Source: an uncultured bacterium (lineage in GTDB: Bacteria > Patescibacteriota > Minisyncoccia > UBA6257 > 2-01-FULL-56-20). Taken from it: a stretch of DNA of 50,826 nucleotides. Numbering within the stretch: position 1 is the first letter of the stretch; each line of letters begins with the position of its first letter. The stretch lies in assembly GCA_963844965.1 (NCBI GenBank), contig CAWJQC010000002.1, forward strand, positions 1 through 50,826. The letters are read 5' to 3'. Under the pieces are notes generated by a model. It did not search any database. It was not told the origin of the DNA and saw nothing but the letters and a program-made list of their open reading frames with translations. Shown here piece after piece: positions 4,587-49,944 of this stretch. The position numbers and the translations under genes are program-made.

Positions 4587-4654
4587 CCCCCATCTTTTCA
4601 GAAAAAGGTGGGGGTCAATCCCCACCTTTTCGCGTATCGCGCAAAAGATGGGGG
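4587..4654. repeat. Two G-rich hairpins in the 5' leader of the giant surface-protein gene
   Basis: CCCCCATCTTTTCAGAAAAAGGTGGGGG (4587-4614) and CCCCACCTTTTCGCGTATCGCGCAAAAGATGGGGG (4620-4654). Confidence 0.6.
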
Positions 4655-4667
4655 TAAAAACAAAAAC

Positions 4668-7600
4668 ATGAAAAAAATTATTTCGGTCGGTTCGGTTTTA
4701 ATGCTTTCGTTTGGCGTTTTGGTTTCCAGCGCACCAATGGCGTTGGCGGCAGTTGGCACCCCGGTAAGCATTGGGCAAAATTCCAGCATAAGCAATAGTT
4801 CCAGTATTAGCATCACCGTACCTTCTGGCGGAGTGGCTACTGGAAATACAATAATTATTAGTTTTGCGATGGATCCGCAAACCGGCACTGTAACTGCTTC
4901 AGACACCAAGGGCAATACTTATAATAAAGATACTGATGTCTCAAATGGGACAGGGTCTTCTGGTGTTAGGACTATAGTTTTTTCCGCACCCGTAACTACG
5001 GCATTAGTATCGGGTAATACTATAACGGTTAGTTTTCCTACGGCCAAATCCAAAGCGATTAGCGTTTATTATGTTAGTGGTTTAGTTTCAGCATCTCCCA
5101 CAGACCAAACTCACACCGGGACGGCGGATAGTAGCAGCCCAAGCTCTGGTGCCGCAGCAACAACGACACAAGCCAATGAATTGCTGATTGGGGTGATAGG
5201 AAGTGAGTCTTCTTTAGGGAATGGCCACACCATTACAGCGGGTTCTGGCTTCACTGGATTGACAGGTGCCTCTGCCGACACCAGATCTTCTGATACATCG
5301 CAGCAAGTTTTTCCAGAATATCAAACTGTGAGCACGACCGGAGCTTATACCGCAACTGGTTCAGTAGCTGGTGCTTCTCACAATTGGGCAGCCGCTATCG
5401 TGACATATAAAGCCGCTACTACTAAATCAACCCCCACCTTTTCCAATTTAACAGCTAACTCGTCTGTCACTTATGGTGCAAGCAATATAGCTCTTAGTGG
5501 TAGAGTTAGCGCTACCGGCCCTGTTTATCCGGCTAACGGAGAAACAATCACTGTCACAATTAATGGGAACGCGCAGACAACCACAATCAACGATTCAACT
5601 GGCGACTTCTCCATCAATTATAATCCCTCTACTATACCCTATTCAGCTAGTGCCTATACTATAACGTATTCTTATGCTGGCGATCCCTCATTAAATCCTG
5701 CGACCGATACTAGTAGAACTCTCACGGTAAACAAGACTGCACTTAGCATCACCGCCAATAATGACAACAAGACCTATGGTCAGACCAAAACATATGGAGC
5801 TGGATCTACGGCCTTTATAAGTAGCGGCCTACAGAATAGTGAAACAATCGGGTCGGTTACAATTACGGCTAGCGGAGGCACGACTGCTAATTCAAATGTG
5901 GGTAGTTATAACTTAACGCCCAGTACTGCAACTGGTGGAACATTTAATGCTAATAACTACACAATCACTTATAAGGAGGGCACTCTTACTGTTAATCCTT
6001 TGGCCGTAACTCTAACCGGCAGTCGCCCTTACGATGGTACGGCTAATGCGTCCTATTCCATTTTATCTGTATCCAATAAGGTTGAAGGCGACGTCGTTAA
6101 TGTTGTTTCCGGCAACGGAACTTTGGCTGGAGCAAGTGTCGGCTCACAAAACATTACATCAGTTGGAACTTTGGCGCTGGGCGGCGCGAATGCGGGTAAC
6201 TACACATTAACCGGCGCGACAGGTTCCGTTTCTATAACCAAAGCTGGCCAAACAATTACTGTTACAACTCCAGCTCCGGCGTCTGCTGCGTACAACTCGA
6301 CCTTCGGGGTTGCCGCCACCTCTGATTCCGGCCTCGATGTCGCGATCACCACGAGCGGTTCCTGTTCTGGTTCTGGCACCAATTCCGCGACGGTCACGAT
6401 GACCAGCGGCACCGGCACTTGCACTGTTCACTACAACCAGGCGGGCGATGCCAACTATTCTGCGGCGACTGAAGTGACGAGCGATACTGCCGCCGCCTTA
6501 AAGGCACAAACGATAAACGTTACAACTCCAGCTCCGGCGTCTGCTGCGTACAACTCGACCTTCGGGGTTGCCGCCACCTCTGATTCCGGCCTCGATGTCG
6601 CGATCACCACGAGCGGTTCCTGTTCTGGTTCTGGCACACAATTCCGCGACGGTCACGATGACCAGCGGCACCGGCACTTGCACTGTTCACTACAACCAGG
6701 CGGGCGATGCCAACTATTCTGCGGCGACTGAAGTGACGAGCGATACTGCCGCCGCCTTAAAGGCACAAACGATCAACGTTACAACTCCAGCTCCGGCGTC
6801 TGCTGCGTACAACTCGACCTTCGGGGTTGCCGCCACCTCTGATTCCGGCCTCGATGTCGCGATCACCACGAGCGGTTCCTGTTCTGGTTCTGGCACCAAT
6901 TCCGCGACGGTCACGATGACCAGCGGCACCGGCACTTGCACTGTTCACTACAACCAGGCGGGCGATGCCAACTATTCTGCGGCGACTGAAGTGACGAGCG
7001 ATACTGCCGCCGCCTTAAAGGCACAAACGATAAACGTTACAACTCCAGCTCCGGCGTCTGCTGCGTACAACTCGACCTTCGGGGTTGCCGCCACCTCTGA
7101 TTCCGGCCTCGATGTCGCGATCACCACGAGCGGTTCCTGTTCTGGTTCTGGCACCAATTCCGCGACGGTCACGATGACCAGCGGCACCGGCACTTGCACT
7201 GTTCACTACAACCAGGCGGGCGATGCCAACTATTCTGCGGCGACTGAAGTGACGGATACCACAAGCGCAACCAAGGCAGACCCCGGTATGAATACATGGC
7301 CGACAGCCAGTTCGATCACTTACGGCCAGACGCTGGCGGATTCCACCTTAACCGGTGGTAGTGCAACGCCTGCTGGCAGTTTTGCGTTCACTACGCCTTC
7401 CACGGTGCCCGATGCAGGCACTGCTTCGCAAGATGTAACATTCACACCGACCGATACAGCCGACTACAATACAGCCGCTGGCACGGTGAGCGTGACGGTT
7501 AATGCGGCGCCCTCGCTGACCTCCGCCACGATTACGAGCGACGGTTCATCCATCGGTGATCTTACCGGCGCCACTCTTACAACCACTGATTCCGGTTCTT

Positions 7601-9654
7601 GCAACGGCAGCAATAGCGATTCTTCCGCCTGCCATACCTTAAATGTCAGTAGTGTGTTGGTGAGTAATGGTCCTTTGCTGAAAGAGAATGATGGATTTGC
7701 ATTACAAGCCGATGCTACGCAGCAAGCCGCCCTCACGGCATATTTCGCCGCCAAAGGATGGCCAGCCGGTTATGTCACTCAAATTGATTCAGAAATAGCT
7801 GGCAGCGCACCTTTCTTCTACTTTGTTTCCGACGGCAGCGGCAACTACAGCTTGGCTGACGGATTCCAATGGGGATTGGGCAACCACAACCAGCCCTTGG
7901 TCATTGACGACAATTATCCCGCCGGAACGTACACGTATGCCGGCACCGTTGGTGGCAATTCGGTGACCGTGACTTTGACGGTGACGAAAGCGCCAGCGAC
8001 TGTTTCCGTCACCGGCGTTTCTCTTAACGAAAATAGTAGGACTCTTAGGGTTGGCGACACCGACCAGCTTACGGCGACCATTTCTCCATCTGGCGCTACC
8101 AATCAAGGCGTTACTTGGTCGTCAAACAATACAAGCGCGGCGACCGTTGATAGTAGCGGCCTTGTGACCGCAGTTGCGACTAGTTCGGCGACTATCACCG
8201 TGACAACGGATGACGGCGGCAAGACCGATACCGATGCAATCACGGTGGAAGCGCCTCGTTATACGCGCACGCCGAGTGGCTCGTCGCCGATTCCTCAAGG
8301 CACAACCGTAACGATTACAACCGCCGGAGATAGTATGTATGACTTATTAAAGGATTATGTGACTGCATTTAAGTTGGTCTTTAACACGGGAAGCGGCGGC
8401 ACAATCGTTTCTCCTTGCGAAGCAAGTCCGAATGTTATTTGGGAGCTGAAGAATTTATCGCCTGATACCTACACTTTAGGAGCACCGCTTGTTTATAATG
8501 ATGCAGTTGGTAGCGACTACTGCACAACGCCGGATGGATCGGTTTGGCTCAGTAGCGATAGCTTCACCGTTGTAGCTTCGCCCAGTGACGCCACGATCAC
8601 GTCCGCATCCTATACCGTGGATTCCACTCTCAACACAATCATCAACGTTCCTTTCGGAACGGCAAAGGCCACTTTCTTGGCTGCTCTAACGCCGGCAACG
8701 GGAGCAACCTTGGATGATTCTGGTATTACCGACCCAGTGGTATCTGCCAACACCTTAAAAGTTACCGCTCAGGACGGTGTGACGACCAAAACTTATACCG
8801 TTACCGTGAACACCGCACCGAGTGCTGACGCCACGATCACGTCCGCATCCTATACCGTGGATTCCACTCTCAACACAATCATCAATGTTCCTTTCGGAAC
8901 GGCAAAGGCCACTTTCTTGGCTGCTCTAACGCCGGCAACGGGAGCAACCTTGGATGATTCTGGTATTACCGACCCAGTGGTATCTGCCAACACCTTAAAA
9001 GTTACCGCTCAGGACGGTGTGACGACCAAAACTTATACCGTTACCGTGAACACCGCGCCTGCCGCGACGAGCACATTGAACGTATATCTTACGGTTGACA
9101 ATTCGCAGGGCGGCTCGGCGGCACCATCCAACTTCACGGTCAGCGTGATAGCAAGTCCGACATCTACTTTCCCCGGAGACGCTTCGGGCACGGCAGTCAC
9201 GATTGATGCCAACGAATCGTATGGCGTGAATGTTTCCTCGCTCACGGATTACACAATGGGAACAAGCGGCAGCTGCAATGGCACGAACGCTCTTCCGGCG
9301 AGCAGCTCAATAACCTGCGCAATTACGGAAACCTTCTTGCCCCTTATTTCACAACAGGGTTCGTCCAATCCGACCACCGATTCCATCACCGTAACCTGGA
9401 CTACGGACCATCCGGCAACGAGCCGTGTAATCTACGACACCGTGTCGCATCCGGACCCGCTTGCGACCTCGACGGCGAATTATGGCTACGCTAATTCCAC
9501 GGTTGAGGACTCCACGCTTCTTACGAGCCACAGCGTGACTGTCTCCGGTCTTGCGGCTGGCACGACTTACTACTTCCGTGCTGTTTCCCATGGCTCTCCC
9601 GAAACTGTAAGCGATGAATTTACCGGAACGACAACCTCGCCGGCGCCGCTGTGA
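4668..9654 (+). CDS. Giant secreted surface/adhesin-like protein (~1660 aa) with MBG-like, Big_2-like and FN3-like domains and internal tandem repeats. There is an apparent +1 frameshift near 6636-6640.
   Basis: Signal peptide MKKIISVGSVLMLSFGVLVSSAPMALAAVG. YG..KTYG / NNYTITY MBG-like segments. Big_2-like segment VSVTGVSLNENSRTLRVGDTDQLTATISPSGATNQGVTWSSNN. FN3-like C-terminus (TVTWTTDHPATSRVIYD...TTYYFRAVSHG). The ORF track splits it into 4608-6731 and 6568-9654 because repeat copy 2 reads ggcacacaattcc versus ggcaccaattcc in copies 1, 3 and 4. Confidence 0.75.
6245..7255 (+). repeat. About 3.9 near-identical tandem copies of a 258-bp (86-aa) unit inside the surface-protein gene
   Basis: GTTACAACTCCAGCTCCGGCG recurs at 6261, 6519, 6778 and 7036. 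The period is 258 bp, or 259 bp for the copy carrying the extra base. Confidence 0.85.
8581..9060 (+). repeat. Two tandem 240-bp (80-aa) repeats inside the surface-protein gene
   Basis: GACGCCACGATCACGTCCGCATCC at 8588 and 8828. Peptide ATITSASYTVDSTLNTIINVPFGTAKATFLAALTPATG... occurs twice. Confidence 0.8.
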
Positions 9655-13601: not shown

Positions 13602-15093
13602 TTAGAGATTTGGGGCGGTAAGCCGCTCGTAGTATTGCCCCAGTCCCAATATGTCCGCTTCACGCCATTTTTTGCCGATAAGCTGGAAACCGACGGGCAA
13701 TTCGCCGGGTTTGAGTTCGCGTTCTACGGGTATGGAGATCGCCGGCACGCCGGCAAGGTTCACCGGACCGGTGAAGATGTCGGAGAGATACATGGCCAGG
13801 GGGTCGTCTATTTTCTCGCCGATATTGAAGGCCGCGGTCGGGGCGACCGGCGTGAGTATCACGTCAACCTCTTTGAAAATTTCGTCAAAGTCTTTTTTTA
13901 TCAGTGCCCTCACTCTTTGCGCTTTTTCGTAATAGGCGTCGTAATAACCGCTTGAAAGGACGAACGTTCCCAAGATGACGCGCCTTTTCACCTCGGCGCC
14001 GAATCCGAGGCCGCGCTGTTTCATGTAGATGTCGTGCAGGTTCGTCATTCGGGATCTTTTGCTTGCGACGCGCGAGTATCTGATGCCGTCAAAACGCGCG
14101 AGGTTGGCGCTCACTTCCGCCGGCATGCTCAGGTAATAGGCGGGGACGGCATATTTCGTGTGCGGCATGCTCACTTTCCTGAACTTCAAGCCCAAACTTT
14201 TTATTTTTTCTATCGCTTTTTCCATGGCCGCGCTTACGTCGGCCGCGGTTACCTTTATGAAATATTCTTCCGGCAAACCGACCGAGAGTTCCTTTATCTT
14301 CTTGAAGTCCGGGTTCGTAAGTTCGTCGCCGTATTCCACCGGTTTCCGCTCGTCCGCGGGCATGCTCGTCGCATCCAGGTCGTCGTGTCCGCTTATGGCT
14401 TTGAACAATATTGCCGCGTCCTCAACGGTTTTGGTTATCGGCCCGATCTGGTCCATGCTTGAAGCCATGGCGATGAGGCCGGAGCGGGAAACCGAACCGT
14501 AGGTCGGCTTGAGACCGACCGTGCCGCAGAAAGATGACGGTTGTCTGATGGAACCGAACGTGTCCGAGCCGAGCGCTGCCACGGCCATGTGCGCCGCGAC
14601 CGCCGCCGCCGAGCCGCCCGAAGAACCTCCGGGGACGCGCGTCGTGTCATGCGGATTTTTCGTGATCTGGTAGGCCGAGTTTTCCGTTGACGAGCCCATG
14701 GCGAATTCGTCCAGGTTCGTTTTTCCGAGGAAGACGGCGTGTTCGTCTTTTAGTTTTTTTATGACGGTCGCGTCGTAACTCGCTACGTAATTTTCCAGGA
14801 TTTTGGAGGCGGCGGTGGCCGGCAGGTCTTTTATCAAAATATTGTCCTTTATGGCGAGCGGTACGCCGGCCAAGTTCTCCCAGCGGCTCGTCTTTCGCGA
14901 CTATGAGGTCAACCTGTTCCGCGTCTTTTAGCGCCCGTTCTTCGGCCAGGCTTAAATACGCCATTATCGTCCTGTCCGTTTCTTTGATGTGTTTGAAGAA
15001 TGCCTGGACCATTTCCAGCGCTGAAAATTTCTTATCAAGAAGTCCTTCGTGGAAGGACTTAATGGTTAAATTGTGTAATGCGACATGCGACAT
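13602..15093 (-). CDS. gatA: Glu-tRNA(Gln)/Asp-tRNA(Asn) amidotransferase subunit A, with an apparent single-base frameshift near 14873-14880
   Basis: Amidase-signature region GGSSGGSAAAVA...DTFGSIRQP. N-terminal 60 aa (LTIKSFHEGLLDKKFSALE..) are in ORF 14647-15093; the body is in ORF 13602-14873. The junction reads PLGEL / AGVPLAIKDNI. Confidence 0.85.
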
Positions 15094-18855: not shown

Positions 18856-20436
18856 TTAAAGGCGCGGGAGGGCTGGGGAAGGTTTTCTCCGGGGAGCCCC
18901 ATAAGCTCCTGAAGCGGGTTCAATTCCCGCCCCCGCAAATAAATGTGACCTATCTCCTGTAAACCCCCTGTTTAGCTCGAAGATGGGCGACAAAACAGCG
19001 GTTCCATACTTTCCGGTGGATTTATCAAAAATGATTCCACTCGGGAAGATTAACCTTTGGAATCGCTGTTTTTGTTCAACGTCCATGTCCTGCCACTGGC
19101 GAGCAGGGTCTCGCAGAAATTGAAAAGCGTAATCAAGGGACGCCTCGATGTTCAGTTCGTCGGTTTTGGTTTCGTTGTTCGATATTCTAATGCCTGCAAT
19201 CTGGTTTTCCAGGGATTCCTTAGTACCTAAAAACTCCTCTTTTGTTAGTTCGCCGTTTATCCGCATTTGCATAAGCCGTTCCTTTTTTGATTCCAGCAGC
19301 CGCAGTTCCTTTTCGTAGCCCTCTCCAGCGTTTTTAAGCTCGCCTTGCTGGTTTTGCCAGTTATCTATCACCACGGCCCTAAAAGCCGACAAAAACCCTT
19401 CTGTCGGCGTTACCTTGCGGAGTTTCTTAATAAATTCTTTTTCCAGCTCTTGTGCATCAATGCCCTGGTTTTTATGCTGGCAGCCTTCGTTATGGCACTC
19501 GTAATAGGCGTATTTCTTGTTTCTGCCGGTGTGCCAACTGCCGGTGAGTTTCCTACTACAAGGACACAGAACAAAGCGCCGCAAAGGAAAGTCGGGGTTT
19601 AATCGGAGGCGGGGGATATTCTTGATCCGCGAATAGTGGCTTTTTAGATATTGAATTTGCTCGTATTCCTCCGTGGCAATCATTGGCTGATGCAATCCCC
19701 TATATTCTTTACCCGTCCACGGATCAACCAAAATTCCGGCATAATACTTGTCCTTAAGTATTCTCTCGAAAAGTTGTTTAAACATCGGCTTGCCGGTCCT
19801 TGTTCTAAATCCCCACTGGTTCATTAGCTTGACTACTTCTTGCATCGAGCGGCCACCCTGTAAATAGGTTTTTAAGCCACGCTGGACGAGATCAAACCTT
19901 TCGGGGTCCGGCTCGTCCGGCCTTGTTTTCCTCCTGTCGCTTATTTTTTTGGCATGAATGTATCCGATGGGCGGTTGCCACGGCCAAATCCCCTCCATGA
20001 TTTTCCTTTGTAGACCGCCCTCGCAGCGCTGTTTTCTGATGTCATTCTCGAATTGAGCGTAACCGGCCAAAACCGCCTCGGTCATCTTGCCGATTGGATT
20101 GTCGCCAATTGGTTCGGTCACTGAGTGTAAGATTGTGCCGTATTTTACGAGCTGGGCTTGTAAGCCGTAATGGTCGGTTGTATTCCTTGCGAACCTATCT
20201 ATTTTCCAAACGATAAACGCTCCAATTTCTCCCTTATGTTCTCGGCAGTATTCCAGTGCTTTAATTAGTTCCGTTCTGTTAGCTGCCGTGGCCGATTCGC
20301 CCTTCTCAATAAAAATTTCGGTTATTTTGATACCTTTTTTTCCGGCGTATTCCAAGCAGGCCTGTTTTTGGTTATCCAGGCTTGTGCCGGAAACCTGCTC
20401 TTGACTTGATACGCGGCAATAAATGATTCCTTTCAT
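18856..20436 (-). CDS. Large serine recombinase (resolvase/invertase N-domain + recombinase domain + Zn ribbon)
   Basis: MKGIIYCRVSSQEQ catalytic-Ser region, FARNTTDHYGL, C-terminal CPCSRKL...YYECHNEGCQ zinc ribbon. Confidence 0.85.
   Translation of the reverse strand: MKGIIYCRVSSQEQVSGTSLDNQKQACLEYAGKKGIKITEIFIEKGESATAANRTELIKALEYCREHKGEIGAFIVWKIDRFARNTTDHYGLQAQLVKYGTILHSVTEPIGDNPIGKMTEAVLAGYAQFENDIRKQRCEGGLQRKIMEGIWPWQPPIGYIHAKKISDRRKTRPDEPDPERFDLVQRGLKTYLQGGRSMQEVVKLMNQWGFRTRTGKPMFKQLFERILKDKYYAGILVDPWTGKEYRGLHQPMIATEEYEQIQYLKSHYSRIKNIPRLRLNPDFPLRRFVLCPCSRKLTGSWHTGRNKKYAYYECHNEGCQHKNQGIDAQELEKEFIKKLRKVTPTEGFLSAFRAVVIDNWQNQQGELKNAGEGYEKELRLLESKKERLMQMRINGELTKEEFLGTKESLENQIAGIRISNNETKTDELNIEASLDYAFQFLRDPARQWQDMDVEQKQRFQRLIFPSGIIFDKSTGKYGTAVLSPIFELNRGFTGDRSHLFAGAGIEPASGAYGAPRRKPSPALPRL
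18873..18918 (+). other. tRNA-like 3' fragment (anticodon arm with CAT, 4-nt variable loop, T-arm, acceptor 3' strand). Probable attachment-site core.
   Basis: GGAGC-CCCATAA-GCTCC, TGAA, GCGGG-TTCAATT-CCCGC, CCCCGCA-A. No matching 5' acceptor strand or D-arm upstream. Confidence 0.4.
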
Positions 20437-21681: not shown

Positions 21682-21996
21682 TGCCCCTTTTGGGGCTGCT
21701 CCCCTTAAACAAAAAGAAAACAACCCCTATTTGGTTGTTTCCCGCTTGCGAGACGGTGGGTACTACTTTGTTGAGCTTTCCAGCCCAAGTTGAGCCTCTC
21801 GGCCCAAAACCCATTGGCTTAATCATTCCGAGCCTCCGCCAGTATTTAGTTATATAGTAATTATACCATACTTTGGATTAAAAAAGCAAGGGCGGTGTAT
21901 ATTTGAAAAATCTTCAAGATAGGGGGTAGAATGTAAGTACAACTCAATATCAGCGGCCTAAACCATTTGACAACGGGTGGCATGGCACAAAAATCC

Positions 21997-22095
21997 TCCT
22001 TCCAGATACCAAACACCACGTTTGGCCTACTTCTGGAAGGAGGTCGCCCCGAAAGGGTGCGGGTGCCGCAAGGCATCGGGTCGGCGTGGTGTTTT
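21997..22095 (+). promoter_or_regulatory. Candidate structured 5' leader / riboswitch-like element ending in a terminator-like hairpin
   Basis: Nested hairpin CTTCCAGA-T-ACCAAAC-ACCAC-GTTTGG-CCTAC-TTCTGGAAG (21997-22038). Long-range pairing AACACCACG (22009-22017) with CGTGGTGTT followed by TTTGTG (22083-22095). Candidate promoter TTGAAA-N18-TAGAAT at ~21905-21935. Confidence 0.3.
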
Positions 22096-40172: not shown

Positions 40173-41192
40173 ATGTTTAAATTAAAAGAATTCGCGGCAA
40201 TCTTGGGAATCTGGCCGCCGCGAAGAAAAATTATCGTCGGTGGAGCTGTTTTTTTATGCATCGTTCTCGTCGCGGGCTATTTCGTTTTTGAACTTGGACC
40301 CGTGGCTGGAGGAATAGCCGCCACCCAAAACTTTGAAATAAGATCCGGCGACGGTTTCCGCGAAATTGCCGGACGTCTCGCCTCCAATGGATTTGTCCGT
40401 TCCAGGCTCGCTTTTGAATTTCTGGCTCTTTTCACGGGGAACGCCGGAAAATTGAAAGCCGGCATTTACGAATTGAATCAGGGAATGTCTTCATGGGAAG
40501 TGCTGGACGAACTTGTTTCCGGCGCGCATAAGGAGGTTACCGTGATGATTCCGGAAGGCGCGTCCGTTTACGACATAGACAGGGTTTTGAGCAATGCCGG
40601 CGTAATAAGCCCAGGCAGCTTGGTCTCCGCGAATACCGCGAGCGGAATTGAAGGAAAATTGTTCCCCGACACCTATGTTTTTTTCACCGGCTCCGATACG
40701 AAGGATGTTGTCCAAAAATTCCTGGCGAATTTTGAAACGAAGGCGGCGCCGCTTTTCGCAGGCAGCACGAGTGACGAGGAAGCCGACTTAATCCTCGCTT
40801 CTCTTGTGGAAAAAGAGGTTCCGGAGTATAAAGACCGGCAGATTGTTGCTGGCATCATAATGAAACGCCTGAAAGCGAACCTTCCCGTGCAAGTGGACGC
40901 AACCATCTGTTACGCTAAAGCAGTTTCGGTCTATCCGGAGGCATCCTCCTGTTATCCGCTCGCCCCCCTTGACTTCAAAATTGATTCGCCTTATAATACG
41001 TACTTACATACTGGCTTGCCGCCGGGGCCTATCGGAAACCCCGGTTTATCGGCCATAAATGCGGTTTTAAGCCCCAAAAGTTCGCCATACTGGTTCTATT
41101 TGAGCGACCCCGTGACGCACAGAACCGTGTTTGCGAAGACGCTTGACGAACAGGAGCAAAATCGCGTAAAATACTTAGGAGGCAACAATTGA
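40173..41192 (+). CDS. mltG: Endolytic murein transglycosylase MltG (YceG family)
   Basis: N-terminal TM, GIYELNQGMSSWEVLDEL, FPDTYVF, YNTYLHTGLPPGPIGNPG motifs. Confidence 0.8.
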   Translation: MFKLKEFAAILGIWPPRRKIIVGGAVFLCIVLVAGYFVFELGPVAGGIAATQNFEIRSGDGFREIAGRLASNGFVRSRLAFEFLALFTGNAGKLKAGIYELNQGMSSWEVLDELVSGAHKEVTVMIPEGASVYDIDRVLSNAGVISPGSLVSANTASGIEGKLFPDTYVFFTGSDTKDVVQKFLANFETKAAPLFAGSTSDEEADLILASLVEKEVPEYKDRQIVAGIIMKRLKANLPVQVDATICYAKAVSVYPEASSCYPLAPLDFKIDSPYNTYLHTGLPPGPIGNPGLSAINAVLSPKSSPYWFYLSDPVTHRTVFAKTLDEQEQNRVKYLGGNN

Positions 41193-41371
41193 GCGCAAAC
41201 CTCGAAAAGAGGGGGTTTTCTTTTGTCAAAATTTTTCAGGTAAGGATTTTCTCGGGGACGCATGGTTAATAACTCTGCGCGCGAATTTATAGGATGGGCG
41301 TTCGCATGATTTGCATAATCAAATAGAAAACAAGTGAATATCGCCGAAGCCGCGCAAGGGGCCGTTGGTTT

Positions 41372-44300
41372 TTGGCGCGTTTGATTTTTTTGAATTTCGT
41401 CCCGGCAATTTTTGGCATGCCTAAATTTTTACCGGTTAAAAATTTTGCAAAATCAAAAACGCTCCTCGCGCCGTTCAATTTGAACGAGACGCAGCTCAAA
41501 TCATATGAGTGGTTCCTGAAAAAGGGACTGCGCGAGCTTTTGGATGAAATTTCTCCGATATACGACCATACCGGCAAGGAATTGGAATTGAATTTCAAAA
41601 ATTATCATTTTGACGAGCCGAAATACGACGAAGCGACTGCGCGCTATAAAGACGCCACCTATGAAGCGGCGTTGCGCGTTGAATTGGAGTTGATCTACAA
41701 AAGGACCAATCGCAAAGAGAAACAAGAGGTGTACTTCGGCGACTTTCCGGTAATGACCTCGCGCGGCACGTTCATAATAAACGGTGTGGAACGCGTCGTT
41801 GTTTCGCAGCTCATCCGTTCGGCAGGAGTTTATTTCACCTCCGTCCCCTGGCGCGGCAGGCAGCTTTTCGGCGCGAAGATAATTCCCAACCGCGGCGCTT
41901 GGCTTGAATTTGAGACCGATGTTGACGGCGGGATAGGCGTGAAGATTGACCGCCACAGGAAAGTCGCCGTCACCGAACTTCTTCGGATCTTCGGCGCGTC
42001 CAACGATGACATAGGTTCCAGATTTTCCGACATTGACCGCGGACAGGTCAAACACATTGAAGCGACTCTCAAGAAAGACGTGGCGAAAGACGCCGATGAA
42101 TCGTACATGGAGATTTACAGGCGTCTTCGGCCCGGCGATCCAGCCACGCCGGCTACGGCCAAAAGTTTGATAGACGCCATGTTCCAGCGGGCGGACCGTT
42201 ATGATCTTTCCACGGTCGGTCGCTTCAAGGTAAATCAGCGCCTGAATTTTGATAAGAGCAAAGAGAACCGGCTTTTGGACTCGGAGGATATTATTGCGAT
42301 TGTTCGGGAAATTATTTCTTTAAATAACAATCCGCGGGCGCAGGCGGACGACATTGACCACCTCGGGAACCGCCGTCTGAAGGCCGTGGGAGAACTTTTG
42401 CAGGGTCGTTTGCGCATCGGTCTCGCCCGTCTCCGCCGCATTATCCAAGACCGCATTTCCACGGAGGATAAGGAGAAAGTCATGCCGGCGCAGCTCGTGA
42501 ATTTCCGTCCGGTCTCCGCCGTAATTAAAGAATTTTTCGCATCCTCCCAGCTTTCGCAGTTCATGGACCAGGTGAATCCCTTAGCTGAGCTTGAACACAA
42601 GCGAAGGATCTCCGCTTTGGGACCGGGCGGGCTTACGAGAGAGCGCGCGAGCTTTGAGGTCCGCGACGTCCATAGATCGCATTACGGCAGAATTTGTCCG
42701 GTTCAAACGCCTGAAGGCGCGAATATCGGTCTCATAAACTACCTTGCGAGTTTCACGAGAATCAATGATTTCGGATTTCTGGAGACGCCATACATAAAAG
42801 TAGTTGACGGCGGGGTTACAGGCGATGTTGTTTGGCTGGACGGTCTTGAAGAGGAGAAATACAGGATTACCCATGCCGGTACGCCTCGCGACGCCGATGG
42901 CAAACTGCAGGGTTCCGTCGTGGAGGCGAGAATTTACGGCCAGCCTGGAACTTGCACGCCGAGCGAGGTTGATTTGATCGACGTGGCGCCCAATCAGTTT
43001 GTGAGCGTGGCGACATCCCTTATACCGTTTCTCCAACACGATGACGCGAACAGGGCTCTTATGGGTTCTAACATGCAGCGGCAGGCCGTTGTTTCCGTGC
43101 GGCCCGACGTTCCCTATGTCTCTACGGGGGACGAGGAGAAGGTTGCTATTGATTCCGGTTATGTCATCGTGGCAGAGGGTGATGGCAAAATAGCGGAAGT
43201 GGACGCCAATCACATTAAGGTTAAGTATGCGAGAACCACCAAGGATTACGTTTTGGAGAAATTTAAGCGTTCCAATCAATTTACTTGCATTTCGCAGCGG
43301 CCGCTTGTCGGGAAGGACCAGCCCATCAAGAAGGGCGATATTCTCGTGGACGGGCCGTCAATAGAGAACGGGACGCTTGCTTTGGGACAGAATCTTCTCG
43401 TGGCGTTTGTTTCATGGGACGGCGCGAACTTTGAGGACGCCATCGTGGTTTCCGAGCGGATCGTGCGGGACGACCTGTTCACGTCGATACACATAGAAGA
43501 TTTTTATCATGACGTGCGCGACACGAAGCTTGGCCCGGAAATAACGACCCCCGATATTCCCAACGTTTCCGAGGAAAAACTTAAGAACTTGGATGAGGAA
43601 GGGATTGTAAGAATCGGTGCCGAGGTGAAATCCGGCGATATTCTCGTCGGCAAAATTTCTCCCAAAGGCGAAGCCGAACTCACTTCCGAGGAGCGTCTTT
43701 TGCGGGCGATCTTCGGCGAGAAAGCGCGCGACGTGAAAGACACTTCTCTTACATTGCCCCACGGAAAACGCGGCAGGGTCGTGAGTATAAAAGTTTTTGA
43801 CAGAGAGAGGGGAGATAAGCTCGAGCCCGGCATAATAAAAAGGATTCAGGTTGAGGTCGCGCAGCTACGGAAAGTTCAGGCCGGGGACAAATTGGCCGGA
43901 CGTCACGGGAACAAAGGCGTAATTTCGCAGGTGCGCGCGATTGAAGATATGCCGTACTTAGAGGATGGAACTCCGGTGGACATAGTTTTGAATCCTTTGG
44001 GCGTCGCTTCGCGCATGAACCTCGGGCAGATTTTTGAAACACATCTCGGTTGGGCGGCGTCCAAACTTGGCTACCGTGCCGTGACTCCGGGGCTTGACTC
44101 GGCGAGCGAGGGAGATATCAAGGAGGAACTCAAGAAAGCCGGCCTTCCCGAGGACGGCAAAGTGACGCTTTTTGACGGCAGAACCGGCAAGCCATTTGAT
44201 AATAAGGTCATGGTCGGCCAGATTTACATGATGAAGCTCAATCACCTAGTTGAGGACAAGGCGCACATGCGCTCCATCGGTCCCTATTCTTTAATCACGC

Positions 44301-47300
44301 AGCAGCCGTTGGGCGGCAAAGCCCAATTCGGCGGCCAGCGCTTCGGAGAAATGGAAGTTTGGGCTCTTGAAGGATACGGAGCGAGGCACGTGTTGCAGGA
44401 AATGCTGACCATCAAGTCCGACGACGTTTTGGGCAGGGCCGCGGCTTACGAGTCCATAATCCGCGGCGAGACCATAAAGGAACCCAACCTGCCGGCGTCC
44501 TTCGGCGTTTTGGTGAATGAGCTTAAATCCCTCGGTTTCAACATTGAGCCGGTTTTTGACTCCGAATCGGCGCGCCGCGAAAATTTCCGGGCGCTAAAGA
44601 TAAGCGTTGCTTCTCCCGAGGAGATCCTCAAGTGGTCGCATGGCGAGGTTTTGAAGCCGGAGACCATCAATTATCGTACCCAGCGGCCGGAAAAGGACGG
44701 ACTTTTTTCCGAACGCATTTTCGGTCCGACAAAGGATTATGAATGTTATTGCGGCAAATACAGGCGTATCCGCTACAAGGGAGTGATCTGCGACAAGTGC
44801 GGAGTTGAGGTCACGAGAGCCGTCGTGAGGCGGGAACGCATCGGGCACATTTCGCTCGCTACTCCGGTTTCTCACATTTGGTTTTTGAAGAGCGTGCCGT
44901 CGCGCCTGAGTTTGCTTCTGGACGTGGCGACGCCGAAGCTGGAGCGTGTGATTTACTATTCCGCGTATATCGTCACTGAGGTGAACGAAGAACTCAAGAA
45001 GCAGGCACTCACCGAGCTTGAACGCGAGCTCAAGGGCAAATTGAAAGTCGGCGGCAGGGATAAAAGAACTAAAGTTGAGCTTGAAGAGGCGGCCGAAGTT
45101 ACAGGAAGTTATTTGAAGAACCTGCGCGTTGGGCAGGTATTGACCGAGATGGAGTATTTCAATCTTTCGCGGCGTTTCGGCAATGCGTTCAAGGCGGCAA
45201 GCGGCGCCGAATCCGTGAGGAAAATTCTTGAGGGCATGGATCTGAGGAAGGAGATTCAAAAAATAGAAAGGGAACTGGATGGGGCGAAAGATCCAATGTC
45301 GCAGTCAAAGCTCCTCCGCCGCCTTAAGATGTTCCGCTCCATGATCAAGAACAATAGCCGCCCGGAGTGGATGGTGATCACAACGCTTCCCGTGCTGCCT
45401 CCGGATCTGCGGCCGATGGTCGCCTTGGACGGCGGCAGGTACGCGACTTCCGATCTGAACGATCTCTACCGGCGCGTCATCAACAGGAACAACCGCCTGA
45501 AGAAACTTTTGGAAATAAAAGCGCCGGACATCATCGTCAAGAACGAAAAGAGGATGCTTCAGGAAGCCGTTGACGCTCTCATAGACAATTCGGCGCGTTT
45601 CGGCGTGCAGCAATTGTCCGCGCAAAGGCGGCCGCTCCGTTCGCTCGCCGACATGCTCAAGGGCAAGCAGGGCCGGTTCAGGCAGAATCTTTTGGGAAAA
45701 AGAGTTGATTATTCCGGCCGCTCGGTTATCGTCGTCGGTCCGAAGCTCAGGATTGACACCTGCGGCATACCGAAGCGCATGGCGCTGGAACTTTTCAAGC
45801 CGTTCGTGCTTTCGGAGGTCATGAAGAGGGGTCTTGCCCACAATATCAGGAGCGCTTCCAGGTTCATAGAGGAAGGCAGCGACGAGGTTTGGGGAATTTT
45901 GGAAGAAATCATCAAGGACAGGCGGGTGCTTTTGAACCGCGCGCCGACTTTGCACAGGTTGAGCGTCCAGGCGTTCCATCCGATTCTGGTTGAAGGCCTC
46001 GCCATTCAGATACCACCTCTCGTCTGCGTCGCTTTTAACGCTGACTTTGACGGCGATCAAATGGCGGTTCACCTGCCGTTGTCTGAGAACGCCCAGCGGG
46101 AAGCGGAAGAAATCATGGCGGCGGGGCGGAATCTTTTGAAACCCGCGACCGGAGAATTGATTACCACTCCGACGCAGGATGTCGTTTTGGGGATTTATTA
46201 TTTGACGAGAGCCGGGCTGGAGAGCGGTGCGAAAGCAAGTAAGGCCTATGCGTCCTATGAAGAAGCGATTTTGGCGCACGAGAACGACTATTTAGGTTTG
46301 CACGAGCCGATGAAATTCAACGGCATGGAAACGACGTTGGGACGCGTCATATTCAACCGCGCTCTTCAGGGGAAGGTGGATTTCGTGAATGAGACCATGA
46401 ACAAAAAGAAGCTTTCCAAGCTTATAGAAAAAGTGCTTGAGAATCATGGTTTGGATGTCACGCGCGACGTTTTGGACTCGGTGAAACTGCTCGGCTTTGA
46501 CTCGGCGACGCGCTCCGGCATAACTTGGTCAATGTCGGACTTGGTCACGCCGTCTGCCAAACCGGAAGTTATCGCCGAGTCGGAAAAGGAAATAAATTTG
46601 ATCCGCAGCCAGTATGGCGAGGGACTTTTGACGGAAAACGAGCGGCGCGTCCGAACCATCAGTGTTTGGGAAAAAACGAAGGAAAAAATAGCGAAGCTGG
46701 TCACGACCGCGATGTCGCCGGACAATTCCATTTACCAGATAATCGATTCCGGCTCGCGCGGCTCCTGGGCGCAGCCCATCCAGATGCTCGGCATGAAGGG
46801 CCTTGTTGCCAATCCGAAAGGCGAGACCATTGAACTGCCGATAAAATCGTCTTTCAAGGAGGGGTTGTCGGTTCTGGAGTATTTCATTTCAACGACCGGA
46901 GCGCGCAAAGGCACCACCGACACGGCTCTGAAAACGGCGCAAGCCGGCTACCTCACGCGCCGGTTGGTTGACGTTTCCCAGGATCTCATCATACGCGAAG
47001 AGGACTGCCGCGCGAAAGAAGGCATAGAAATTTTCCGTGAAGACGGCAAAGAATTCAACCAATCCTTCGCGAGCCGCTTGTTCTCAAGAACCGTTCTTGA
47101 GGATATCCGCGCAGGCCACAAGATTGTCATCCGCGCGGGAGAGATCATAGACAAACAGACCGCGGAGACCATAGAGAAATCAAAAATCGAATCGGTGAAA
47201 GTAAGGTCGCCAATTACTTGCAGAACCCTTTATGGTGTCTGCGCCACTTGTTATGGATTCGATCTTGGTAATAATAAACCGGTCAAGATCGGCAGCGCCG

Positions 47301-48175
47301 TAGGCGTTTTGGCCGCCCAGTCCATCGGCGAACCGGGGACGCAGCTTACGATGCGCACTTTCCACACCGGCGGTATTGCCGGAGTGGATATTACGCACGG
47401 TTTGCCCCGCGTTGAGGAAATATTTGAGGTGCGGCCTCCGAAGGGTAAGGCGATTTTGGCACCCGTAGACGCCACGGTGGAAAAAATCGAGGAAAGGGGC
47501 TCGATCAAGGTTATCAAGCTGATTCCGAGTGAGTCCAAGTCAAAGCAAAAATCCAAGTCCAAGACACTTGACTTCAGCGTTCACCGCTCCGCCCTCGTTT
47601 ACATTAAGGCCGGTGATAAAATAAGCAAAGGCGAGCAGCTTTCCGAGGGCCACTTGGACCTCCGCGAACTTTTGGCGCTCAAAGGCGTTTCCACCGTTGA
47701 GCGTTACATCATCAACGAGGTTCAGAGGATTTACATGTCCGAAGGCGCGTCAATAAACAACAAGCATATTGAGGTCATAATCCGCCAGATGTTCTCGCGC
47801 GCGAGGATTAGGGATTCCGGAGACGCCGAAGATTTTGTGATGGGAGAAATAGTTGAGAAAGACAAGGTTTTGGAGGAAAATCGTGAACTTAAGAAGCAAG
47901 GTCTGCGTCCGGCCAAAGCCGACGAAATGCTTTTGGGAATTACGCGGGTCGCGATCTCGGCGGAAAGTTTCCTCTCGGCGGCATCCTTCCAGGATACGGC
48001 GCGGGTGCTCGTTAAGGCGGCAATCGAAGGGAAAGTTGATCTCCTGCGTGGCCTTAAAGAGAACGTTATTATCGGCCGCCTGATTCCGACCGGTCCGATA
48101 AGAGACGAAACGCCGCCGGAAGCGAAAATTGAAGAGACATCTCGGGGCGAGGCAGGAGTGGCGGGAGAAGTATAA
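41372..48175 (+). CDS. rpoBC: DNA-directed RNA polymerase beta-beta' fusion (rpoB and rpoC in one 2267-aa ORF)
   Basis: rpoB motifs ([50 protein letters not shown]) continue without a stop through ...[55 protein letters not shown] into rpoC motifs ([35 protein letters not shown]). Confidence 0.85.
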
Positions 48176-48259
48176 TAGGCGTCAGGCGTCATGGGTTAAG
48201 AGTCAAGAGATAAAAGGCACGCTTGACGCACGACGCTTGATGCGTGATACTAAAATACC

Positions 48260-48700
48260 ATGGACAATCCAATAACCGAACCAGCGGACAAAAAAAGCTA
48301 TGAGCTGTCTTTTCTCGTGAAGAACGAGGACGACGCCTTGGAAGTCCGGAAATTGGTCGCGCAGCACGAGGCCGAGATCCGCGGAGAAGGGGCCCTTCGG
48401 AAGCTTAATTTGGCCTATCCGATAAAGCATGTGTCTCAGGCGTATTTTGGATTCATGAATCTCGCGGTCCTACCCGCCGATGCCAAATCCCTTGAACGCG
48501 ACTTAAGTGCGAACACCGCGGTCCTTCGCGCTCTGATAATAAAGTTACCCAAAGAGAGGACGGCGGCCGCGGTGATGGATTTCAAAAAATCGGTGAGGCC
48601 GACGGCGCTGAGGAGGCCGCTGAGAACGGAAGTGCCGCAACAGCCGAAACCGCTGAGCAACGAAGCGCTTGAAAAAAAGATTGAAGAGATATTGCAATAA
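48260..48700 (+). CDS. rpsF: 30S ribosomal protein S6 with C-terminal extension
   Basis: YELSFLVKNEDDALEVRKLVAQHEAEIRGEGALRKLNLAYPIKHVSQAYFGFM. Confidence 0.7.
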   Translation: MDNPITEPADKKSYELSFLVKNEDDALEVRKLVAQHEAEIRGEGALRKLNLAYPIKHVSQAYFGFMNLAVLPADAKSLERDLSANTAVLRALIIKLPKERTAAAVMDFKKSVRPTALRRPLRTEVPQQPKPLSNEALEKKIEEILQ

Positions 48701-48781: not shown

Positions 48782-49243
48782 ATGAATCTGAACAAAGTAT
48801 TTATCATCGGCCGGGTCACTGCCGACCCGCAGTTGCGGAACACGGCGGGCGGGCAGGCGGTTACGAGCTTCGGCGTGGCGACAAACAGGGTCTGGACGGA
48901 TAAAGCCGGCGCGAAGCAGGAGAGCGCCGAGTTCCACAATGTTGTTGTCTGGGGAAGGCAGGCGGAAGTGGCAACGCAATATTTGGTGAAGGGCAGCGAA
49001 GTTATGATTGAGGGGCGTCTGCAGACGCGCTCCTGGACGGACAAGAACGGTCAGCTGAGAAAAACAACGGAAATAATAAGCGAGCGTCTCCAGCTTGGCG
49101 CGCGTCCGATGGGTTACGCTAAGGGTGGCGGAGCGAAACAGCCACAGCCGCCGGCGGAGGAAATCGTGACTCCGGCCGAAGAAATTCCGACGGTGAACCT
49201 TGATGAACCAGCGGACGTGAAACCGGAGGACCTGCCGTTCTAG
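48782..49243 (+). CDS. ssb: Single-stranded DNA-binding protein
   Basis: OB-fold VFIIGRVTADPQLRNTAGGQAVTSFGVATN...FHNVVVWGRQAE and C-terminal acidic tail ending DLPF. Confidence 0.85.
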   Translation: MNLNKVFIIGRVTADPQLRNTAGGQAVTSFGVATNRVWTDKAGAKQESAEFHNVVVWGRQAEVATQYLVKGSEVMIEGRLQTRSWTDKNGQLRKTTEIISERLQLGARPMGYAKGGGAKQPQPPAEEIVTPAEEIPTVNLDEPADVKPEDLPF

Positions 49244-49518: not shown

Positions 49519-49944
49519 ATGGCAAAAAAAATTAAGACAGTACTTAAAATACAAATAGAGGCCGGTAAAGCGAATCCCGCGCCGCCTATCGGCACGGCTT
49601 TGGGCCCACAGGGAATCAACATTCAGGATTTCTGCAAGAAGTTCAACGACATGACGAAAGACATGGCGGGCGACGTTGTTCCCGCGGAAATCACTATTTT
49701 TGAAGATAGAAGTTTTACGTTTAAATTAAAAACTCCGCCGGCGTCAGCTTTGCTCAAAAAAGCCGCCGGTATTGAAAAGGGCTCCGGCGACCCATTAAAA
49801 AACAAAGTGGGGAAAGTTACGCGCGCCGATATCAGGAAAATTGCCGAGCGAAAGATGCCCGATTTGAACGCTAACGACATAGACGCCGCGATGAGAATTA
49901 TAGAAGGCACGGCGCGCAATATGGGAATTGAAATCATAGATTGA
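49519..49944 (+). CDS. rplK: 50S ribosomal protein L11
   Basis: [43 protein letters not shown]. Confidence 0.9.

Follow-up and report, generated by a model that had tools for sequence, protein, structure and literature searches.

Our study examined a 50,826-nt stretch of DNA (hereafter the window) from an uncultured bacterium (GenBank assembly GCA_963844965.1, contig CAWJQC010000002.1), in which the genes for the two large subunits of RNA polymerase (RNAP), rpoB (β) and rpoC (β′), are joined in one gene, here called rpoBC. The ORF listing and its translation showed a single uninterrupted open reading frame (ORF) on the forward strand from position 41372 to 48175, with 2267 codons counted from a TTG, plus the stop. 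Three-frame translation of positions 44400–44800 found the other two frames to be closed by many stops, whereas the fusion frame had none. An alternative genetic code or stop read-through was considered and rejected, as the junction is without any stop codon of the standard code. The homologues share an N-terminal consensus, MxKxLPxKxFSKSK, the methionine of which matches an ATG at 41417 of the window. Because the conserved N-terminus begins at this methionine, ATG 41417 is likely to be the real start, giving a product of 2252 amino acids (aa) and 251.7 kDa. The 2267-aa fused ORF of a preliminary description of this DNA, which had been made from the sequence alone, was thus upheld as a continuous frame, but is probably longer than the protein itself.

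Both subunits are complete within this frame. The Pfam domains follow one another as Rpb2 domains 1, 2, 3, 4-5, 6 and 7, and then Rpb1 domains 1–5. The rpoB profile PRK00405 (NF001616) of NCBIfam matched end to end (profile positions 4–1093 of 1096, aa 8–1044) with 1506 bits against a curated cut-off of 896, and a second rpoB profile, TIGR02013, gave 1483 bits against a cut-off of 801. The rpoC profile TIGR02386 also matched end to end (profile positions 2–1139 of 1147, aa 1060–2226), with 1548.7 bits against a cut-off of 963.5. These matches identify the first module as a bacterial rpoB and, alongside the NADFDGD motif and the N-terminal zinc-binding cysteines, the second as a bacterial rpoC. 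The claim that the hallmark motifs of both subunits lie in one frame was therefore confirmed by Pfam, NCBIfam and the catalytic and zinc motifs alike. By its architecture, a complete β and a complete β′ in one frame that is conserved in relatives, rpoBC is a natural β–β′ fusion. No Rfam family was found within the fused gene by an Rfam scan, and a sequence scan of positions 41000–48500 found promoter- and terminator-like sites to be no commoner than in shuffled sequence. The coordinates are collected in Table 1.

Table 1. Features of the rpoBC locus and its neighbours (positions in the window)
Feature	Position	Strand	Details and basis
Predicted rpoB–rpoC fusion coding sequence (rpoBC)	41417–48175	+	2252 codons; stop TGA/TAA at 48173–48175; 251.7 kDa
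In-frame 15-codon extension from TTG 41372, probably untranslated	41372–41416	+	Homologue consensus starts at the Met at 41417
β (RpoB) module, aa 1–1046	41417–44554	+	PRK00405; Pfam Rpb2_1,2,3,45,6,7; last conserved strand FNIEPV at 44537–44554
13-residue connector between FNIEPV and LKISVA	44555–44593	+	Junction alignment of 112 homologues
Connector part 1: β tail, FDSES, 5 residues	44555–44569	+	
Connector part 2: old initiator-Met position, now Ala (GCG)	44570–44572	+	
Connector part 3: native β′ N-terminal residues, RRENFRA	44573–44593	+	Alignment with unfused β′ N-termini
Rest of β′ (RpoC) module	44594–48172	+	TIGR02386; Pfam Rpb1_1-5; first conserved strand LKISVASP
N-terminal zinc-binding motif of β′, CYCGKY...CDKCG, aa 1110–1129	44744–44803	+	Motif columns invariant in homologue alignment
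Catalytic Mg2+-binding motif NADFDGD, aa 1541–1547	46037–46057	+	Kept in 40/40 aligned homologues
yceG/mltG-like gene, 5′ of rpoBC	40173–41192	+	Pfam PF02618, E 1.4e-68
rpsF, downstream of rpoBC	48260–48700	+	Pfam
ssb, downstream of rpoBC	48782–49243	+	Pfam
rplK, downstream of rpoBC	49519–49944	+	Pfam

The junction and its connector

The preliminary description had read the junction as a β end, an 11-residue linker and the β′ N-terminal region, and had proposed an alignment with relatives. The peptides that it named were all located: ...NIEPVFD of β ends at 44560, the supposed linker covers 44561–44593 and the β′ peptide begins at 44594. This alignment was made with 112 homologues and led to a different division. 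Unfused β′ proteins of Parcubacteria begin with MRV(T/A)DL(E/Q)xIRIKLASP, and the fused consensus, ...(D/A)R(K/R)(D/E)(D/N)F(S/R)ALKI(S)VASP, matches this N-terminus residue for residue, with the near-invariant arginine of the connector corresponding to residue 2 of the ancestral β′. The connector is therefore composed of a shortened β tail of 5 residues and the intact β′ N-terminus, with no β′ residues lost and no dedicated linker added; most of the supposed linker is native β′ sequence.

The length of the junction is almost constant. The distance from a β anchor to a β′ anchor was 46 aa in 109 of the 118 family members, including the window, 47 aa in six and longer in three, and a spacing of 46 aa corresponds to the 13-aa connector. 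At the DNA level, two relatives (L001 and L081) differ from the window in 12–17 synonymous and 15–16 non-synonymous codons within the 48 junction codons, and both keep frame and length across the junction. The connector changes faster than its flanks, with 5–9 non-synonymous changes in its 13 codons; two of the residues in this region, R154 and F158 in the numbering of a modelled junction fragment, are conserved among homologues. Neither the junction alignment nor the DNA of relatives revealed a conserved in-frame start codon near the junction. The sole nearby candidate is a TTG at aa 1079, which lies within conserved β′ sequence and is replaced by I, T or V in relatives.

The fragment in question, aa 900–1400 (501 aa), was modelled using AlphaFold2, and the model was used for local secondary structure around the connector only. 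In this model the connector is flanked by two strands, one before it and one after, at a local predicted local distance difference test score (pLDDT) of 59–76, and FNIEPV formed strand E142–147. This hints at a hairpin-like join of the last β strand and the first β′ strand. In a sequence search of the PDB, none of the best 60 of 139 matches was a chain that covers the junction.

The fused family and its unfused relatives

The full-length protein was searched against 5.8 billion protein clusters and proved to be one member of a large fused family. The best 120 matches were all fused, measured 2240–2322 aa and were 70–100% identical to the query, and their sources included NCBI, JGI, ENA and Logan assemblies. 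When the search was repeated with the most divergent member (P0119) as the query, the 120 matches listed were again all fused; 108 had already been found and 12 were new. Altogether the family comprises 132 distinct clusters at 90% identity, which are 69–100% identical to the search queries. As the second search added just 12, the family appears to be nearly fully sampled. The cluster of the window itself also holds a near-identical fused protein (P0441) from another contig, and fused genes were found on contigs of 913,682 bp (L081) and 808,089 bp.

The fused proteins were also united by phylogenetic inference. The β′ parts of 245 sequences (1156 columns) were placed in a neighbour-joining tree. 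All 121 fused tips fell in one clade that had no unfused members and stood on a long stem (0.145, compared to a mean internal depth of 0.21); the 116 unfused Wildermuthbacteria-like tips formed a separate clade, and other Patescibacteria also lay outside the fused one. Over the last 400 aa of β, identity to the window was 82% or more for fused members and at most 77% for the nearest unfused sequences. The source names within the fused clade were Liptonbacteria, Ryanbacteria, Paceibacterota, Minisyncoccia, Pacebacteria and Parcubacteria group bacterium LiPW_15, and the NCBI lineage of Liptonbacteria runs through the Patescibacteria group to the Parcubacteria group. As its closest homologues come from Parcubacteria-group genomes, the window is best assigned to the Parcubacteria/Paceibacteria of the Candidate Phyla Radiation (CPR).

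Unfused Patescibacteria were drawn from a scan of genome contigs with a 240-aa junction peptide, which returned at least 600 taxonomically mixed rows and is not a census. At the DNA level, rpoB and rpoC were separate in Nomurabacteria, Zambryskiibacteriota, Saccharibacteria, the locus L002, a metagenome-assembled genome (MAG) of the Patescibacteria group, a Parcubacteria MAG and another Paceibacterota MAG. The survey of fused versus separate genes across the CPR that had been suggested at the outset has found one fused clade, with Nomurabacteria, Zambryskiibacteriota, other Paceibacterota and two Saccharibacteria-named loci outside it unfused. The idea of a lineage marker survives in a narrower form, as the fusion marks one Parcubacteria sub-clade and not the CPR as a whole. 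The record of L002 (CAZWDJ010000006.1) is titled uncultured Candidatus Saccharibacteria; its β′ is identical to an NCBI protein of Candidatus Wildermuthbacteria and its relatives are Wildermuthbacteria, and the record is probably mislabelled.

Origin, product and significance of the fusion

We consider it very likely that rpoBC is a genuine and fixed in-frame fusion of single origin, which is translated from ATG 41417 as one polypeptide of ~252 kDa. The observations behind this reading are that the ORF is continuous and both modules are complete, that ~130 lineages keep the frame and junction length, that the fused proteins sampled are monophyletic while neighbouring groups are unfused, and that the Helicobacter fusion has a separate origin.

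The fusion may have required very little. Five loci from the nearest unfused group found had distances of −14, −1, +3, +4 and +9 nt from the rpoB stop to the rpoC ATG, and in two of the five (+3 and +9) the genes were already in frame. With the two genes abutting or overlapping in this way, mutation of the stop or a tiny indel would have been enough, and the fusion would have been easier than in the earlier argument, by which several coordinated losses were needed. We propose a single fusion event in the ancestor of one Parcubacteria sub-clade, to which Liptonbacteria- and Ryanbacteria-labelled genomes belong; the layout before it probably resembled the one seen in the nearest unfused relatives found. 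The rpoB stop would have been lost, or an indel of a few bases would have had the same result; the initiator methionine of β′ would have been replaced and the C-terminal tail of β shortened to 5 aa. The Wildermuthbacteria-like unfused group is 77% identical to the window over the C-terminal 400 aa of β and 65% over the N-terminal 400 aa of β′. Its subunits are, like those of the window, small and without large lineage-specific insertions, but each is encoded by a gene of its own, and its β′ measures 1139–1254 aa in the best 120 matches.

The single chain would be expected to fold as the usual two-lobed catalytic core and to assemble with α into core RNAP, with the last β strand (FNIEPV) and the first β′ strand (LKISVA) joined by the 13-residue connector. 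Obligatory 1:1 synthesis and tethering of the subunits would follow, which would most likely be neutral or mildly helpful for assembly. We infer that the protein stays uncleaved and active, that it is present in the cell as a single polypeptide and part of active RNAP, and that being fused makes little difference to its function. Known fusions offer several points of comparison. The natural β–β′ fusion of Helicobacter is made as one polypeptide (PMC9696931); RpoBC of Helicobacter and Wolinella was described by Zakharova et al. (1998, 1999; as cited in PMC9696931 and PMC7483510) and that of Wolbachia by Lane and Darst (2010; as cited in PMC7483510). In the Helicobacter/Wolinella proteins, as in the window, a complete β is followed in frame and without a stop by a complete β′, the last β strand is joined to the first β′ strand and the state is fixed across the clade. 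However, the Helicobacter-type model is ~2890 aa in length, compared to 2252 aa for the window, and the origins are independent, as both modules of the window protein group with Patescibacteria. The Wolbachia protein is likewise a natural single-ORF β–β′ fusion in a bacterium with a reduced genome, but it belongs to another lineage, has another connector and is ~600 aa longer. A synthetic rpoB–rpoC fusion of Escherichia coli is cited as functional in 10.1101/2021.11.05.467461, and a fused rpoBC construct, pMP61, is used for the expression and purification of Mycobacterium tuberculosis RNAP (10.64898/2026.04.06.716786). Here too the C-terminus of β is covalently linked to the N-terminus of β′, although these fusions are artificial with designed linkers, whereas that of the window evolved. 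That such engineered proteins are usable supports the single-chain mode of action proposed here.

Several explanations compete with this reading. An indel or chimeric join, introduced during sequencing or assembly, could have deleted the rpoB stop and set rpoC in frame. The contig does carry other possibly disrupted genes (the overlapping ORF pair 4608–6731/6568–9654 and a gatA ORF without its N-terminus), and two junction-spanning fragments among representatives clustered at 50% identity (P0162 and P0154) resemble frameshift artefacts. However, the 132 clusters come from independent projects and assemblers and share both the fusion and its near-invariant junction length, on contigs that include two of 808–914 kb, and relatives keep the frame despite many synonymous differences in their DNA. 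An assembly artefact, which the preliminary description had also thought unlikely, is thus effectively refuted, and hardly any probability can be left to it. We attach as little to inheritance or transfer of the fusion from a known fused lineage (Helicobacter/Wolinella or Wolbachia) in place of an origin of its own. The top NCBIfam raw scores did belong to the fused models PRK09603 and PRK14844, as is expected for any two-subunit query, but the window scored 2210 bits against the Helicobacter-type model (NF007172/PRK09603; cut-off 5372) and 2065 bits against the Wolbachia-type model (NF011417/PRK14844; cut-off 4632), and so falls far below both. Furthermore, both halves of the protein are closest to unfused Patescibacteria and not to Helicobacter, and the connector of Helicobacter muridarum is ~28 aa long and unrelated in sequence to the 13 aa of the window. 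These comparisons indicate a fusion independent of those in Helicobacter and Wolbachia.

A somewhat less remote alternative, although still an improbable one, is that the gene is fused but two proteins are made, by internal initiation of β′ or by proteolysis of the connector, leaving coupled expression as the only consequence. The fast-changing connector would fit an exposed loop within reach of proteases. The single-chain product is, however, supported by the lack of any conserved ATG, GTG or TTG at or near the β′ start, the TTG at aa 1079 included, by the report of the Helicobacter fusion as a single polypeptide (PMC9696931), and by the engineered fusions, of which that of E. coli is cited as functional (10.1101/2021.11.05.467461) and that of M. 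tuberculosis yields RNAP (10.64898/2026.04.06.716786). A single fixed fusion made as one chain remains our preferred reading, and some points count against it. The single-chain state in the fused clade is read from sequence, and cleavage of the connector after translation is possible. Monophyly is drawn from a simple neighbour-joining tree of one part of the protein, and the model of the junction fragment is poor overall (mean pLDDT 57.5) and without a distance measurement. The clade survey consisted of best-scoring database matches, and may miss secondary fissions or fused members elsewhere. For example, the cluster of P0119, otherwise fused at 2258 aa, includes a member of 1227 aa (P0449), which may have been cut short by the end of its contig or may reflect a secondary fission.

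The wider occurrence of such fusions was assessed by an exhaustive search of 1.84 billion representatives clustered at 50% identity, using the junction and 200 aa on each side as the query. At this level the entire Parcubacteria family collapses to one representative (P0051), and ~20 other full-length fused representatives of 2031–2836 aa were recovered (among P0122–P0263). Those with names include Mycoplasma wenyonii (WP_014849752.1, ‘Multifunctional fusion protein’), an Anaerolineaceae MAG and a Deltaproteobacteria MAG, and many of the others look alphaproteobacterial in a rough placement by best match to labelled loci. Their architecture is that of the window, but they are at most 61% identical to it over the junction region. 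The connectors, of 3–62 aa and without shared sequence, point to many independent fusion events across Bacteria. Fusions had been described at the outset as established in Helicobacter and Wolbachia; they are known there, but are not limited to these two.

Full-text literature searches found no description of an rpoB–rpoC fusion in the CPR, Patescibacteria or Parcubacteria, and the only natural fusions named in the literature found were those of Helicobacteraceae/Wolinella and Wolbachia. The Parcubacteria fusion is apparently an unreported example of a known rearrangement and not mechanistically surprising. Its proteins are already present in public databases, where they are inconsistently named as β′, β or hypothetical protein. 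As a rare genomic change, the fusion offers a discrete marker for one Parcubacteria sub-clade, the relationships of which otherwise come from sequence trees only. Pipelines treat rpoB and rpoC as two separate single-copy marker genes, and a single fused gene that matches both models calls for caution. Alongside the ~20 other fused lineages, it shows that tethering of the large RNAP subunits is recurrent, well past the two textbook cases. The compact 2252-aa protein would also be a convenient candidate for a structure of a natural β–β′ fusion, none of which was among the best 60 PDB matches.

More speculatively, the fusion could be a clean synapomorphy within Parcubacteria and one of at least 20 independent fusions that are perhaps concentrated in small-genome, host-dependent lineages, which would imply a selective driver. 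We regard this as rather unlikely, but if it were true the lineages concerned would be Wolbachia, haemotropic Mycoplasma and the CPR, and the driver would be easier RNAP assembly or enforced stoichiometry once helpers had been lost, and not drift. The 252-kDa product would then rank among the smallest natural single-chain RNAP cores sampled, making it an attractive structural target.

Gene neighbourhood and other features of the window

The order rpoBC-rpsF-ssb-rplK is repeated in the relative L081 (12829–14574), the contig of which measures 914 kb. It is an unusual order, as rplKAJL does not lie 5′ of rpoBC and the interval between ssb and rplK in the window is without an S18 gene. In the unfused Wildermuth-like group, rpoC is followed by ftsK and recA, and then by rpsR-ssb-rpsF on the opposite strand.

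Elsewhere in the window, a LOOT RNA (Rfam RF03000) was matched over its full length at 21955–22077 on the forward strand, with 74.1 bits against a gathering score of 46.4. It lies within the part of the window that is lowest in GC (20–24 kb, GC 0.43–0.44). The reverse strand encodes a large serine recombinase at 18856–20436, in which Resolvase, Recombinase and Zn_ribbon_recom domains were found. Because this gene adjoins the low-GC stretch and the LOOT RNA, the three may together represent an integrated mobile element.

The two forward ORFs at 4608–6731 and 6568–9654 encode Ig-like, YDG and MBG surface-protein domains; they are in different frames and have 164 nt in common. A frameshift may have split a single gene of ~1700 aa here, which would fit a remark on other frameshifts in the preliminary description. 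The GatA-like amidase ORF at 13602–14873 (reverse strand) has a Pfam match that begins no earlier than profile position 48, and it overlaps an upstream ORF in another frame (14647–15093, reverse strand); a frameshift or a miscalled start is possible. Positions 1–2000 of the window have a GC content of 0.596, compared to ~0.50 for most of the window, and carry several overlapping ORFs on both strands.

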